64,000 nucleotides of DNA from PVC group bacterium (GCA_024231215.1 JAAEQR010000202.1:302-64301), one strand, 5' to 3'; shown: positions 17,890 through 58,457, numbered from the stretch's first letter. Made by a program: numbers and translations. Notes: a model not told the origin generated them from the letters alone.

Positions 17890-18072
17890 ATGGATGATGA
17901 TGGTGTTAGATTCATAGTAGTGGATACTGAGCAAGAAATCAGGTGTCCTAATATAGTTGAAATCCACGGCAAAATGCAGCCATGTAACCGACTTTTAATG
18001 AAGGGAGAGATAAATAGCATTGAAACTGTTTGCCCGTCATGCAAGGGTAAACTCAACATAGAGCAGAGGTAA
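17890..18072 (+). CDS. zinc-ribbon small protein
   Basis: 60 aa with a CPN...C...CPSC pattern. Confidence 0.3.
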   Translation: MDDDGVRFIVVDTEQEIRCPNIVEIHGKMQPCNRLLMKGEINSIETVCPSCKGKLNIEQR

Positions 18073-52190: not shown

Positions 52191-52979
52191 TTATTTGTTA
52201 TGCGGCGATTCTAATAACGCCTTCACCCCTGCCCACGTATAGCCACCGCCACCAAAAATCTTCAACCTATCAATATCCAAACAACCGTCATGGTAATCTG
52301 TATGGTGTTTTCGACAAAGAATCATGGTGGGGCCGGTAATGCTGCTTACCCCAGCAGACCGAAAAATCAGGTGGTGAATATCCAAACCAGTACGGCAGCC
52401 ACATTTTGCACAGACAATGGCTGAATTTTCAAACCAGGCTATGGTAGACAGCTTTTTCATCGCCAATTCTTTTTCATCCTTTGTGAAAAGTCGTAAGGTC
52501 GAAACCGTGCGGTCTACCTTTGATTCATTTACCGGCGGCAGGCCGTTTGCATCTTTCAATTCTTCGGTTATGTCTTGAATAGGTAATTCAAGCAAGGTTT
52601 TCGCCTTATCCCAACCCTGTTCTAGTGCAAACGTTTTTAGTTTGTCAAGCTTATCTTGGGGTGCACCCAATAATTCTTTTGGCGGTACATTAAGTTTTAA
52701 AATATATGTTTCGTATAATCGAATGTATTTATCTACTGCGCTTGACCCAACACCAAAACAGCTATAACAGAATTCACTGTAATTTTCAGCATAACCCCGC
52801 CATTTTTTCCCATCTTTAAAATATTTGGCAATTTCACCAGCACGAAAAATGCATTTAATCATTAACGCCGTAATATAAATAGCATATTTTCTAAGTTCTT
52901 CGGCGTTATCCTCTTCAACTTTTCGGTGTATCGCCAGATCAATTTCTTCACCCCATAGCATTAATTTATTTTCTGTCAT
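52191..52979 (-). CDS. HNH endonuclease domain protein
   Basis: 262 aa. The C-terminal CAKCGC....DIHHLIFRSAG...LCRKHHTDYHDG block is an HNH motif with a zinc-binding CxxC pair. Confidence 0.5.
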   Translation of the reverse strand: MTENKLMLWGEEIDLAIHRKVEEDNAEELRKYAIYITALMIKCIFRAGEIAKYFKDGKKWRGYAENYSEFCYSCFGVGSSAVDKYIRLYETYILKLNVPPKELLGAPQDKLDKLKTFALEQGWDKAKTLLELPIQDITEELKDANGLPPVNESKVDRTVSTLRLFTKDEKELAMKKLSTIAWFENSAIVCAKCGCRTGLDIHHLIFRSAGVSSITGPTMILCRKHHTDYHDGCLDIDRLKIFGGGGYTWAGVKALLESPHNK

Positions 52980-54558: not shown

Positions 54559-55041
54559 TTAACGGATCGTCTGTGGTTTATGTTCAAGCGTATATTCTTT
54601 ATTGTTAATAATTATGCTTTCATCACGTTCTAGCTGTGCAATTTCGTCCCGTTTCAAAAATGCAATGTTGGCATGGTAGCTACTGCAAAAACTACAGCGC
54701 AGACAGGTGGTGTATTTTCTCCCATCAATCACATGCTTTATAAAAATAAGACCAATATCACAATGATTACATTCAGTACCGTCCCAGTGTGACTCCCCGG
54801 TTTCGCCTTGGTCGCTACGTGCTTTCTGCTCCTGTTTTCGCACCATATACCGTAAATACTTATAAGTGAATTTAGCGTCTGTGTCACCCGTTGTTATTTC
54901 TTCTGCCGCTGCTTCTAAATGCGAAAGTTTGCTATATTTTAACTTATCCCATGCAAAATCTATAAAATCCTTTTTAACAACAAGGTTATTCAGCACCACT
55001 ATTCGCTTAATTACGGTTGAAAATTCGGCTATTGAGATCAT
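54559..55041 (-). CDS. Cys-rich hypothetical protein
   Basis: 160 aa with a CNHCD...CLRCSFC cluster. The palindrome lies 7 nt upstream. Confidence 0.35.
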   Translation of the reverse strand: MISIAEFSTVIKRIVVLNNLVVKKDFIDFAWDKLKYSKLSHLEAAAEEITTGDTDAKFTYKYLRYMVRKQEQKARSDQGETGESHWDGTECNHCDIGLIFIKHVIDGRKYTTCLRCSFCSSYHANIAFLKRDEIAQLERDESIIINNKEYTLEHKPQTIR

Positions 55042-55047
55042 AATACC

Positions 55048-55061
55048 CTCATTATAATGAG
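55048..55061. promoter_or_regulatory. 14-bp palindrome CTCATTATAATGAG (copy 5)
   Basis: Exact match, 7 nt 5' of the minus-strand start at 55041. Confidence 0.5.
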
Positions 55062-55693
55062 CATTTTACTTTATAAACAATTGGTTTTTGAAACTCACCC
55101 AATATGTAATTTTTGTTATCACCTTTTGGATAAGGTTTGGTTTTATAATTTAATTTTAAAATAACCTGTTTTTTAAATTTTCTGTTTTTTATTGCAAAAA
55201 AAACATACCTGTGTTTGGCTGTCCTTATTTTTCTAAACTCACCCTGATCTTTATTTTTAGTATGTCTTGAATGTTTATTGCCTAATGTGTATTTAACAGT
55301 TCTTTGTTTTGTACAACCAGTATATAAAAAATTACACGCTTGATAAATATACCCATGATGATCCATATTCGTATCACTATAGGCAACAATTATTACATTT
55401 TCAAAACTAAGTCGCCTTAAACAAGCACCAACAAATGCACTTAATGGTTCATTTAAATCATCTACACGGCAAAGCCTATTTAATTCAAAAACCATAAAGG
55501 AGAATTCTTTACCACATATACCATTGCATAAAGTGTTAGAGGCTGGTTTACCAAAAGTGCAAACAGCTTGTAATTTGTTATCAATAAACCAACCCCACGC
55601 CCAAGAAATAGACGGCATACGTCCCGAATAGTGCTTTGGTAGTAAAAAATCCCGACATTCTTTATATGTTAAGTGTTTTATTTTGCCCCTCAT
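55052..55693 (-). CDS. possible Mom-like (acyltransferase-fold) DNA-modification protein
   Basis: 213 aa. The N-terminal KHYSGRMP...FGKP and C-terminal AYSD...HHGYIYQACNFLYTGCT blocks resemble phage Mu Mom as recalled from memory (..HYS...P..FGRP / ..YAD...GH.GTIYQAAGW.Y.G). No alignment was run. Confidence 0.3.
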   Translation of the reverse strand: MRGKIKHLTYKECRDFLLPKHYSGRMPSISWAWGWFIDNKLQAVCTFGKPASNTLCNGICGKEFSFMVFELNRLCRVDDLNEPLSAFVGACLRRLSFENVIIVAYSDTNMDHHGYIYQACNFLYTGCTKQRTVKYTLGNKHSRHTKNKDQGEFRKIRTAKHRYVFFAIKNRKFKKQVILKLNYKTKPYPKGDNKNYILGEFQKPIVYKVKCSL

Positions 55694-56409
55694 ACATATT
55701 CACTTTCTTTCGGCTGCCGGTATTCTATAACTTCGTCCTCCCACCGGCGACCATTCAAATAGGTTGACGGGTGCGGTATATACTGCGGTTCACGCCATTG
55801 CACTTCAATTTGTCGTGCAACCGCCGCCATAATTTCTGTAATTAGTTCTTCGTCAGGTTTTAACTTATAAAATGCTTTACGTGCCTGTTCTTTGTTCGTC
55901 CTTCTGGGGTAGCAGAAATAAAACCATTCAAAAAAAAGGTTTTGGTTACTGTCAGGCGTGACAACGCCTTCTCTTATATTATATTCTATTATATTATAAT
56001 TATAATTAGGGGCACATTTGGCAACCTGAAGTTCACCAAAACCAAGGGCTTCGTGCTTGTCTGGATTATATTCAGGCAGTTCGCTTTTTTGGTAACGGTC
56101 AGACCTAAATGTTTGAAATTTAGCCCATTTTAAGATTTGTATATATTTATTGCCGGTCGAAATGTCAGCGTACCAGATAATTAAATTATTGACCGATAAA
56201 TCGCATAAGAATGACCGGACTTTGCTCGTTTTGTGTTTTAAAAGTGGAAACACGAGTCCCTTGATGTAATTTTCTTCACCTTGGATGCGCCCGTCGTCGT
56301 CACAATGTGGTATTAACCACGTAAAAAGTAACCTCGCAGTGTCACTTTTTAACCTCGAAACTCTTAAACTTGTGCAAATTGATTTTGCTAACATACGTTT
56401 GGTTGCCAT
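55690..56409 (-). CDS. phage replisome organizer / replication initiation protein-like
   Basis: 239 aa. The N-terminal ARLLFTWLIPHCDDDGRIQG resembles the phage replisome-organizer N-domain. The C-terminal FEWFYFCYPRR..KEQARKAFYKLKPDEEL..IM.AV.RQ...W.....IPHPSTYLNGRRWEDE matches the conserved C-terminal domain of phage replication proteins. Confidence 0.45.
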   Translation of the reverse strand: MATKRMLAKSICTSLRVSRLKSDTARLLFTWLIPHCDDDGRIQGEENYIKGLVFPLLKHKTSKVRSFLCDLSVNNLIIWYADISTGNKYIQILKWAKFQTFRSDRYQKSELPEYNPDKHEALGFGELQVAKCAPNYNYNIIEYNIREGVVTPDSNQNLFFEWFYFCYPRRTNKEQARKAFYKLKPDEELITEIMAAVARQIEVQWREPQYIPHPSTYLNGRRWEDEVIEYRQPKESEYV

Positions 56410-56422
56410 TTTTTTAACCTGT

Positions 56423-56968
56423 TTATAATTGTATTACTGCGGCAGAATATACTTTGTCTCGCAGTAATTTTGTTGGTATTGCTACATTGTGTGTGTTGTA
56501 ACCCTTGTTTTTTGCTGGCGGTATTTTAAAGTTGATTTTCCACTCATTTTTAAATTTTAACCAAACCCTTCTTAGTAATTGCCACGGAAATAAATAACAA
56601 ACTTGTGTTGGCATAAAAGCATAAGCTAAATAGTCTATTAGCAGGTCTTTTTCCATCCAGCCGGGTGCACCAGTCGTGTCATTTGATAAGTATTCAAGAA
56701 GAATGTCATTATATGTGCCCCGTCTTTTTTTCTCATCAATATATAATGTTTTACCGCTTTTTAAGTAGATTAGTCTGTCAATGCCCAAACGCTGTCCTTG
56801 GTTATTGCCTTTACATTGAATATTATAAAGCATGTCTGGAAAAGCTTTGGTATAAATTGCTTGCCAAAAATTCTCTTCACTGGCATTTTCGCTAAATTTT
56901 AAATCCTCGTGAAAATTATTTAATTTCGTTGCCATAACTTGTCCAACCCTCTCTTTCTTCTCTTGCAA
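56423..56968 (-). CDS. hypothetical protein, possible PD-(D/E)XK-like nuclease
   Basis: 181 aa. The GIDRLIYLKSGKTLYIDEKK block could be a D...(D/E)xK core. This is weak. Confidence 0.25.
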   Translation of the reverse strand: MQEKKERVGQVMATKLNNFHEDLKFSENASEENFWQAIYTKAFPDMLYNIQCKGNNQGQRLGIDRLIYLKSGKTLYIDEKKRRGTYNDILLEYLSNDTTGAPGWMEKDLLIDYLAYAFMPTQVCYLFPWQLLRRVWLKFKNEWKINFKIPPAKNKGYNTHNVAIPTKLLRDKVYSAAVIQL

Positions 56969-58016
56969 AAACTTCTGCTTTGGGTAAATCCGGATACATT
57001 TTCTCTATTATTTCATAAAACACCTGCGGTTTTTTACTGTGTTCTAATCGTGGTGCAATAACGACAGAAGCTATTCTGTCCTCTGGTTCTGGCATGGGTG
57101 GTTCGCCTATTTTTGCTATTAAAAGTAATTCGTGTTTTTGCCTTACGTAATAGCCCATACCAATTTTGTCTTTCACCCACACCATGCAGGTTCTATAATT
57201 AAAATTCCATTGGTTTATAACTTCAATGCTTTCGGCTAGTTTGGGGCTGGTTGTCCACAAAAATAAAATACAATTATTTGCTGTAATTTTGTGGATCGGG
57301 TAGTTTTTTATGTCTTCTAACTGCATTGTTGGATATTGTTTTTCAATTGCTCGGCTATGCGAAACAACGTGTTCATATTGCCACGGTGGGTCACAATATA
57401 AAACAGCATGTTTTTTATTGTCCAAGCAGTCTGTAATAATGCTTTCGTGCCGCATTATTTTTTTTTCTTGCCCTGTAATATTTTTATATATTTCATTAAT
57501 AGAACTATTTCCTTCTGTAAGGGCTTCTTTTTGCTCAGCTGTTGCCTGCTGATTTATTTTTTTTACTTTGGTTATTGTATCGTGTGAAACACCGGCCTCT
57601 TTAGCAAGTTCTTGGCGTGTTTCTATAGCTTTGGCAGAAGTCTGCGGAACCTTTTCAACCCCCCCCGCCTGTTGTTTTGTTTTGGCTTTTGCTTGATAAT
57701 ATTCTTCAAGTTGTAATGCTAAAACACTGCGTTGATATGCGTTTATATTTCTCCTTCCAAACTGATTTTTAACAATCCATATTTTTGCTGCTGCTTCAGA
57801 TTCAATAATATATTTTATTTTTTTTATGTCAAAATCAATGTCGTGTTTATGGCATATTGCATACCGATTATGCCCATCAATTATGGTATCACGCCACGTT
57901 ATAATGGGGTTTAGACATCCATTTGTTAAAATATTTTGTTCTAGTTGTTTATATTCTTGTTCGGTGAGTGGTGGTATTATTGCTTTAAATTCGGGGTTCA
58001 CGGCAATTTCTTTCAT
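56916..58016 (-). CDS. ParB-like nuclease domain fused to N6-adenine DNA methyltransferase (MT-A70/DPPW type)
   Basis: 366 aa. The N-terminal ParB/Sulfiredoxin-like region reads IDGHNRY. The C-terminal methyltransferase has a DPPW catalytic motif (LYCDPPWQYE). Confidence 0.6.
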   Translation of the reverse strand: MKEIAVNPEFKAIIPPLTEQEYKQLEQNILTNGCLNPIITWRDTIIDGHNRYAICHKHDIDFDIKKIKYIIESEAAAKIWIVKNQFGRRNINAYQRSVLALQLEEYYQAKAKTKQQAGGVEKVPQTSAKAIETRQELAKEAGVSHDTITKVKKINQQATAEQKEALTEGNSSINEIYKNITGQEKKIMRHESIITDCLDNKKHAVLYCDPPWQYEHVVSHSRAIEKQYPTMQLEDIKNYPIHKITANNCILFLWTTSPKLAESIEVINQWNFNYRTCMVWVKDKIGMGYYVRQKHELLLIAKIGEPPMPEPEDRIASVVIAPRLEHSKKPQVFYEIIEKMYPDLPKAEVFAREEREGWTSYGNEIK

Positions 58017-58113: not shown

Positions 58114-58251
58114 TGGTTGTTTGTTGGATTGTTTGTTTAAAAAATGACATACAGCCTCTTGTTTTTATTTATACTCAACAGTATAGCATACCCACCCACC
58201 TTGTCAAGCCCTAAAAGTTGTTGTTTCAAATGCGGCGGATTCAAATAAAAC

Positions 58252-58373
58252 GGCTGGCGGGCAGGATTCGAACCTGCACGGGGAGGCGTTCTCAGCCTTT
58301 ATCCCCTCTTGACATTGGTGCCTAGGACATGCCTTCCAGCGTCTAGCCATACACATTTCCGCCACCGCCAGCC
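58252..58373 (-). ncRNA. aberrant tRNA-like element (122 nt) with canonical T-arm and acceptor pairing
   Basis: On the minus strand it has GCAGG-TTCGAAT-CCTGC (T-arm) followed by CCGCCAG-C. This pairs with a 5' CTGGCGG (or GGCTGGCGG, 9 bp) followed by U at the position-8 equivalent. A long GGGGA...TCCCC hairpin sits where a variable arm would be. No standard anticodon arm is found and the element is about 35 nt longer than a class II tRNA. Confidence 0.3.
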
Positions 58374-58381
58374 GTTATTAT

Positions 58382-58457
58382 TGGCGAATCGGCGGGGACT
58401 CGAACCCCGAACCGCTGGTTTTGGAGACCAGTGCTCTAGCCGTTGAGCTACCGACTC
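58382..58457 (-). tRNA. tRNA-Trp (anticodon CCA), CCA 3' end encoded
   Basis: Manual fold: acceptor GAGTCGG/CCGATTC (one G-U), D-arm GCTC-AACGGCTA-GAGC, anticodon arm CTGGT-CTCCAAA-ACCAG, variable CGGTT, T-arm CGGGG-TTCGAGT-CCCCG, discriminator G, then CCA. Confidence 0.75.

Follow-up and report, generated by a model that had tools for sequence, protein, structure and literature searches.

Enzymes of the MT-A70 methyltransferase and Mom families can both act on adenine in DNA, and when a phage encodes one of each in the same operon, the question arises whether they form one modification system or two. The question is posed by a 64,000-nucleotide stretch of DNA filed under the name PVC group bacterium (GCA_024231215.1, JAAEQR010000202.1:302-64301), which we call the window, meaning the whole stretch analysed. 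The window is a tailed-phage genome with genes for a large terminase, a portal or adaptor, and a major head protein, and its source is an uncultured tailed phage. A preliminary description of the window, made from the sequence, had read one of its regions as an integrated adenine-modification cluster in which a ParB-MT-A70 fusion protein and a possible Mom-family protein are coupled to early replication through a replisome organizer encoded between them. We find that the region is best explained by two independent DNA-modification modules placed around a replication-initiator-like gene, a restriction-modification (RM)-like cassette and a Mom gene, and we hold this view with moderate confidence. 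The more interesting element of the locus is an unannotated nuclease family that is tied to the methylase and alters how the methylase is to be read. The genes concerned lie near the promoter end of a compact minus-strand operon, whose junctions are overlaps or gaps of at most 13 nt:

56916..58016, minus strand: DNA adenine methyltransferase, 366 residues, with an N-terminal ParB-like/helix-turn-helix (HTH) DNA-binding module (about residues 1-190) and an MT-A70 domain (residues 205-364)
57381..57392, minus strand: DPPW catalytic motif of the methyltransferase, residues 209-212, read from the translation
56423..56935, minus strand: PD-(D/E)XK nuclease-fold protein, 170 residues, predicted partner of the methyltransferase, assigned from the model, fold matches, and invariant residues
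55690..56409, minus strand: replication-initiation/organizer-like protein, 239 residues, assigned from PHROG matches
55052..55693, minus strand: Mom-family GNAT enzyme, 213 residues, predicted to hypermodify DNA at adenine N6, assigned from Pfam, PHROG, BLASTP, and the model

The boundaries of the 366-, 239-, and 213-residue genes are as originally placed. The Mom gene, which had been described as lying two genes downstream of the methylase gene, is the third; two genes separate them, and the one encoding the 170-residue protein had not been mentioned.

A predicted PD-(D/E)XK nuclease next to the methylase

The 170-residue gene lies between the methylase and replication genes and overlaps the methylase stop codon by 20 nt. 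Its ATG start is preceded by GAGAGGG; the open reading frame (ORF) finder lists a 181-residue version that starts at TTG. The protein had no match in Pfam, NCBIfam, PHROG, or PADLOC and no homologue in 50,697 GenBank phage records. A large protein collection contained 409 homologues, and a profile search delineated a family of 2,074 clusters (50% identity) that consists entirely of stand-alone proteins. Searching PDB sequences with the family profile and scanning all 42 family members against Pfam returned noise only, and three distant single members, used to scan viral contigs, found nothing.

The AlphaFold2 (AF2) model of the protein has a predicted local distance difference test score (pLDDT) of 89.7. 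The PDB structures matched by Foldseek were the homing endonuclease I-Ssp6803I (the best, 3.8e-4), D212 nuclease, SPARDA nuclease, MepB, EcoRV, and MspI, and the BFVD matches included PD(D/E)XK endonucleases, RecU, and Cas4. The matches were thus consistently of the PD-(D/E)XK type, with modest scores (best PDB TM 0.39-0.46). In an alignment of 62 diverse family members, which is too diverse for deriving search patterns, D53, K69, and E81 never vary, and all 62 sequences have D or E at position 67. The model places D53 ahead of the strand formed by residues 54-58 and D67-E68-K69 within the strand 63-71. On this model, D53...(D/E)67-x-K69 is the classic D...(D/E)xK motif on the expected strands, and the protein is predicted to have a PD-(D/E)XK, that is, restriction-endonuclease-like, fold.

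We examined the neighbours of the nuclease gene in other genomes. In three independent metagenomic contexts it follows a gene for an MT-A70 protein of 370-387 residues, and the remaining neighbours differ. Of 20 loci (14 viral and 6 metagenomic), 19 have an MT-A70 gene as the immediate upstream neighbour, as do three of four loci from metagenome-assembled genomes (MAGs). The same arrangement is seen in 75 of the 78 evaluable loci among 80 sampled from metagenomes, where the median distance between aligned ends is 5 nt. Overall, the nuclease gene is directly downstream of an MT-A70 gene in approximately 95% of about 100 loci. When the methylase was used as the query instead, a nuclease gene was present at only 2 of 48 loci, and in the 46 loci lacking it the methylase shares no more than 46% identity with that of the window. 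The dependence is thus one-sided, of the nuclease on a single methylase clade, as is expected if the nuclease needs the methylase.

The pair is also retained where the cassette has been interrupted. In one locus (L018, 5610-5996), an ORF for a 128-residue HNH endonuclease is inserted between the methylase and nuclease genes, and in another (L017, 4125-6008) about 750 bp of sequence interrupt the MT-A70 gene between residues ~290 and ~286. Both insertions look selfish. The cassette was seen only in phage-like metagenomic contigs (none of the 50,697 GenBank phage records has it), and among 185,579 species genomes it was found in four MAGs.

Three observations weigh against a strict pairing. One lineage (L035, L083, and L086), from a Thermodesulfovibrionales MAG, has the nuclease without any MT-A70 gene and beside a serine recombinase; in L035 (7998-8507), the homologue is full length with intact catalytic residues and lies about 1.2 kb downstream of the recombinase gene. 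A further, independent locus (L112) also lacks the methylase. Finally, pairwise co-divergence of methylase and nuclease is weak (r = 0.24), and we did not use it as support. With these points taken into account, the methylase and the nuclease very probably constitute a functional pair. The methylase had been described as a self-protection enzyme; because it is part of a tight two-gene cassette with a nuclease-fold protein, it is probably not a simple orphan enzyme with this role.

The methylase and its N-terminal module

The methylase assignment itself stands. The 366-residue protein, with its DPPW motif, matched Pfam MT-A70 (PF05063) with an E value of 3.6e-27 and 95.8 bits (cut-off 23.9) over residues 205-364, which covers nearly the full profile (positions 3-172 of 172). 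It also matched PHROG 359, DNA methyltransferase (9e-63), and the PADLOC model MTase_II for Type II methylases (7.9e-51). Its closest sequences in the PDB are the Tetrahymena DNA 6mA methylase MTA1 (1e-16) and METTL3 (7e-8). Hia5 and Hin1523, non-specific methylases that replace mom in Mu-like prophages, were considered as possible MT-A70 enzymes, an idea that was ruled out since the published account describes them as Dam-related.

The N-terminal domain had been called ParB-like, and of the original assignments this is the weakest. Its best match was PHROG 12047, 'ParB-like partition nuclease' (2.2e-12), followed by three other ParB-named PHROGs, all names being annotations; GenBank phage homologues carry ParB or partition annotations, which are likewise annotations and not tests. 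Residues 45-52 read IIDGHNRY, a DGxNR or DGxxR-type motif. On the other side, Pfam ParBc (PF02195) did not match the methylase N-terminus even at E<=5, nor any of seven relatives at E<=0.1 or 0.01, and no ParB sequence in the PDB matched it. The 'ParB' of Leptospira phage LE1, tried as a validation of the label, is not recognised by Pfam either. The name thus rests on PHROG and GenBank names and the DGxNR motif.

A module of about 190 residues with 39% identity to this N-terminus is fused to a methylase of a different type, N6_N4 (DPPY), in Methanoculleus virus L4768, and because of this second fusion we regard the domain as a portable DNA-binding module. Some cassette methylases bear another N-terminal HTH module in its place, for example at locus L005. 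Fusions of a ParB fold to DNA methyltransferases have been documented in a survey of phages, and ParB::MT-A70 fusions were found there to be enriched in archaea rather than phages (PMC12704722). The window methylase resembles the surveyed phage fusions in having a ParB-like module N-terminal to a DNA methyltransferase and differs from them in that Pfam ParBc does not recognise the module. In Methanoculleus virus L4768, a 189-residue protein without assigned function is encoded after the N6_N4 methylase fusion and overlaps it (gp52-gp53; L118, 2498-4274); by sequence it is no homologue of the 170-residue family.

A Mom-family enzyme with a conserved core

The 213-residue protein belongs, with near certainty, to the Mom family. 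It matched Pfam PF25680 (Mom) with 95.3 bits (cut-off 27.1) over residues 5-190, or profile positions 4-202 of 202, and PHROG 1384, 'Mom-like DNA modification protein', with an E value of 2e-52. BLASTP aligned it with Mu Mom (from NC_000929) at 26% identity and E 2e-7. With its AF2 model (pLDDT 88.3) as the query, the top Foldseek match was the crystal structure of Mu Mom, 8bv8 (E 5e-12, TM 0.67-0.71), followed by more than 40 GNAT acetyltransferases. Comparison with Mom and the GNAT fold, as proposed in the preliminary description, thus confirmed its tentative assignment. As for the motif blocks it had named, HYSGRMP and GYIYQACNFLYTG are present, but the 'YAD' of the second reads YSD. The gene adds one more member to a widespread family already described, of which more than 8,000 homologues were retrieved from metaviromes in a study of Mu (PMC13219725).

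Mu Mom transfers glycine from Gly-tRNA(Gly) to adenine N6 in double-stranded DNA, in an SAS context, and the glycyl adduct rearranges on the base to N6-carbamoylmethyl-deoxyadenosine (6-NcmdA) (PMC13219725); an earlier proposal involved acetyl-CoA and iron (PMC7261163). We aligned 18 proteins: the window protein and Mu Mom, together with seven Mom-like proteins from phages in culture and nine homologues from metagenomes. Residues H21, Y22, R73, S85, D107, and Y117 of the window protein correspond to H58, Y59, R111, S124, D149, and Y159 of Mu Mom, whose mutation impairs the Mu enzyme (PMC7261163, PMC13219725). Five of them are invariant in this alignment, S85 is present in 17 of the 18 sequences, and all six are invariant in 48 close homologues.

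Other features weigh against a Mu-like chemistry. R151, essential in Mu, aligns with N109 at a variable position (G, E, or A in the clade), and the Mu residues W48, involved in dimerisation, and W181 are replaced by K11 and N139 and are not conserved; in our alignment, R151, W48, and W181 are specific to Mu rather than family-wide. An HTH-like insertion in the GNAT core (Mu residues ~175-209) is required for Mu Mom activity. The window protein has an insertion at this place (residues ~135-152, pLDDT 62-75), which is about 12 residues shorter than in Mu and in the phages VSiA, TwoStep, and BarretLemon. The window clade also has a conserved C-terminal extension of about 23 residues (N193, Y196, L198, and G199) that Mu Mom lacks. 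Because of these differences in residues, insertion, and C-terminal segment, the donor or the product could differ from those of Mu. By analogy with Mu, with which the protein shares the GNAT fold, the six core residues, and the arrangement as a single-gene system in a phage, we nevertheless lean towards transfer from Gly-tRNA and formation of 6-NcmdA. If the enzyme has the SAS specificity of Mu, up to about 14% of dA would be expected to carry the modification.

The closest cultured relatives of the window enzyme are the A511/P100-type Mom-like proteins of Listeria, Staphylococcus, Bacillus, Proteus, and Salmonella phages. These proteins are 48-56% identical to it over their full length, including the C-terminal extension, and on this basis we place it in the same subfamily. 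The genes next to the window Mom gene are not shared with A511/P100-type phages, and a search of the cultured phages BC-6, PM87, and A511 for shared Mom neighbours found none. We found no published activity data for the subfamily in the literature.

One modification cluster or two modules

A replication-initiator-like gene does lie between methylase and Mom, where the organizer had been placed. The 239-residue protein matched PHROG replication-initiation and primosomal families over both of its halves (E values of 4e-16, 1.7e-15, and 6.8e-15, ranging up to 7e-9), with no match in Pfam, NCBIfam, or PADLOC, and the start codon of the Mom gene overlaps the stop codon of its gene (ATGA). We searched 104 nuclease loci, 46 of which have at least 1.5 kb of downstream sequence and some of which are redundant between collections, for Mom homologues with tblastn and a Mom hidden Markov model and found none. 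Only three of these loci also carry a homologue of the replication gene. At four loci, the closest homologues of the window Mom follow genes for DNA polymerase or other replication proteins, and the surroundings contain no MT-A70 gene; Mom-like genes of cultured phages adjoin polymerase genes (Salmonella phage VSiA and Enterococcus phage TwoStep) or a ParB-like gene (Arthrobacter phage BarretLemon). Because the cassette recurs without Mom, and Mom homologues occur in replication modules without the methylase, we regard the two as independent modules that lie side by side.

The reading as one cluster, coupled to early replication via the organizer, is not without merit. All the genes are in one operon, the Mom gene is translationally coupled to the replication gene, Mom-like genes recur beside polymerase and other replication genes in other phages, and in TwoStep (L031, 1-3537) the order of a DNA methyltransferase, a DNA polymerase, and a Mom-like gene parallels that of methylase, replication gene, and Mom in the window. 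However, not one of the 104 cassette loci has Mom, the four close Mom loci lack a methylase of the window type, the replication gene is an infrequent neighbour of the cassette, and Mu Mom acts post-replicatively, on finished double-stranded DNA (PMC13219725). We therefore consider a single cluster quite improbable. The proposed coupling to early replication retains weak support: the ATGA overlap and the recurrence of Mom in replication modules support co-expression with replication genes in the early or middle phase, but the placement of Mom indicates co-expression at most and demonstrates no mechanistic coupling to replication. The further suggestion that the phage carries an adenine hypermodification besides methylation is sound as a prediction; since an N6-adenine methyltransferase and a Mom-family enzyme are both encoded, a second modified adenine in addition to N6-methyladenine may reasonably be expected.

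In its control, the window gene would differ from mom of Mu, which is a late gene under Dam/OxyR control with an adjacent com gene. The window Mom gene lies in an early or replication operon, and no com gene adjoins it. The sole Com-like ORF of the window (17890-18072, plus strand) is 37 kb away from Mom and in the opposite orientation; it encodes a 60-residue zinc ribbon and is flanked by a scaffold-like gene and the gene for the major head protein. Its resemblance to Mu Com, the translational activator of mom, is weak (tblastn E 0.006), and with Pfam Zn_ribbon_Com it scored 15.8 bits, below the cut-off of 22.9.

Proposed mechanism and alternatives

The scheme that we favour builds on the families and folds to which the proteins belong, the conservation of catalytic residues, the arrangement of the operon, and the statistical association between methylase and nuclease, and every activity and sequence specificity in it is predicted. 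Its first module would consist of two overlapping genes. The MT-A70 N6-adenine methyltransferase, using its own N-terminal DNA-binding module, would mark the phage DNA, and the 170-residue PD-(D/E)XK nuclease would cut unmarked DNA, such as the host chromosome or that of competing phages. As the second module, the Mom-family GNAT enzyme would, by analogy with Mu, acylate adenine N6 in double-stranded phage DNA with glycine from the host Gly-tRNA(Gly), and rearrangement of the glycyl adduct to N6-carbamoylmethyl-deoxyadenosine would block many host restriction enzymes.

The first module resembles Type II RM systems with MT-A70-related methylases, for which the BglII system has been cited (PMC4738411). 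As in such systems, a methylase gene is followed by an overlapping gene for a small PD-(D/E)XK protein, the nuclease almost never occurs without the methylase, and related methylases occur alone. Unlike them, the window methylase carries an extra N-terminal ParB-like/HTH module, and the nuclease family matches no known restriction-enzyme profile. Chlorella viruses have RM-like pairs, and a restriction-like pair in the window would resemble these.

We rate an RM-like role of the pair as possible, with a probability just short of even. Findings against it include the lack of a match between the nuclease and known restriction-enzyme models in PADLOC, Pfam, PHROG, and NCBIfam, and a best PDB fold match that is a homing endonuclease and not a restriction enzyme. 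The chief rivals are accordingly a free-standing homing endonuclease that mobilises the methylase gene and a RecU- or resolvase-like recombination or repair nuclease that travels with it. Along with the match to I-Ssp6803I, such functions would be in keeping with RecU and Cas4 among the BFVD matches, with the selfish-looking insertions elsewhere in the cassette (the HNH ORF of L018 and the interrupted methylase of L017), with the lineage that lacks the methylase, and with the weak co-divergence. But homing genes are normally sporadic, whereas the 170-residue gene is present at a fixed position in about 95% of the sampled loci, often overlapping the methylase stop codon, and its family is large (2,074 clusters) and uniformly stand-alone; for resolvase genes, nothing known would explain why they should accompany a single methylase clade when the flanking genes change. 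We consider a homing or repair nuclease unlikely for these reasons.

For the second module, the alternative is that the window Mom makes an adduct unlike that of Mu, by attaching a different aminoacyl or acyl group or modifying a different target, or that it acts on something other than phage DNA. The loss of the Mu-essential R151 and of W181, the shorter insertion, and the clade-specific C-terminal extension would fit this, as would three histidines (H112, H141, and H144) that are invariant in the window clade, and according to the authors of the Mu study neither co-substrate nor substrate can be predicted from the structure (PMC13219725). The conserved core residues and Mu Mom as the closest fold speak for the Mu reaction instead, and metagenome-mined homologues, within the window clade or outside it, have been described as active in vivo (PMC13219725). 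On balance, a different adduct seems to us doubtful, and the Mu-like product remains our preferred reading. Two bolder readings, that the cassette is an undescribed 'offensive' RM system of phages, destroying unmarked DNA of hosts or rivals, and that the Mom clade makes an aminoacyl-derived adduct other than N6-carbamoylmethyl-deoxyadenosine, are likewise minority views, which we consider unlikely.

If the phage-borne nuclease is restriction-like, it would define a nuclease family not known before and show modification being put to offensive use by phages. Environmental viromes contain this family in abundance, and it comprises more than 2,000 clusters at 50% identity. It is absent from cultured phages, unannotated in Pfam, PHROGs, NCBIfam, and PADLOC, and almost always tied to one methylase clade. 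The chemistry of Mom, which leads from an aminoacyl-tRNA to a DNA hypermodification, was solved recently, and for Mu only. The window enzyme belongs to the large A511/P100-like subfamily, which includes phages used against Listeria and Staphylococcus, and the question whether this subfamily makes the adduct of Mu matters for host range, the evasion of restriction, and artefacts in sequencing. With a methylase and a Mom enzyme that are both predicted to target adenine N6 and are encoded in one operon, the phage would offer a natural system for studying how two modifications of one atom are partitioned.

Genome setting and other observations

The plus strand of the window, from position 1 to about 47.5 kb, carries the genes for the large terminase, the portal or adaptor, and the major head protein; from about 48 kb onward, both gene orientation and GC skew flip to the minus strand. 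A comparison at the DNA level with GenBank phages found no similar phage. Two further features belong to the operon:

58180..58207, minus strand: candidate sigma-70-like promoter upstream of the operon, TTGACA-16-TG-TATACT, 11/12 consensus matches
54559..55041, minus strand: Cys-rich protein, 160 residues, encoded in the same operon and starting 10 nt past Mom

The promoter candidate is the one strong promoter-like site upstream of the operon; the scan relied on the consensus only and found 23 sites when 18.7 were expected. The sole terminator-like match on the minus strand falls within the Mom gene and looks spurious. The 160-residue protein had no match in Pfam, NCBIfam, PHROGs, or PADLOC, and no homologue of it was found beside Mom homologues at the other loci compared. 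Among all five operon proteins, NCBIfam matched none and PADLOC the methylase only.

Elsewhere in the minus-strand block, a 311-residue Cys-rich protein (59699-60634, minus strand) matches a PHROG exonuclease family (1.6e-15), and a 262-residue protein (52191-52979, minus strand) has a C-terminal HNH motif (PHROG HNH endonuclease, 2e-4). Directly downstream of a tRNA-Trp gene (58382-58457, minus strand) lies a tRNA-like element (58252-58371, minus strand) with a perfect T-arm and a poor D-arm. It matched the Rfam tRNA-Sec model weakly (27.7 bits against a gathering threshold of 47; E 0.004), and ARAGORN called it tRNA-Ser(GGA) with a 44-nt intron in the anticodon loop only when introns were allowed and the threshold was lowered. 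A degenerate phage tRNA, or one with an intron, is a possible reading of the element.

The window as a whole shows broad avoidance of short palindromes. The observed/expected ratios are 0.47 for GATC, 0.41 for CGCG, 0.59 for TCGA, 0.63 for GGCC, and 0.72 for TGCA, and 13 six-base palindromes are absent altogether. This avoidance suggests that the phage lineage may have been under long-term restriction pressure despite its modification genes.

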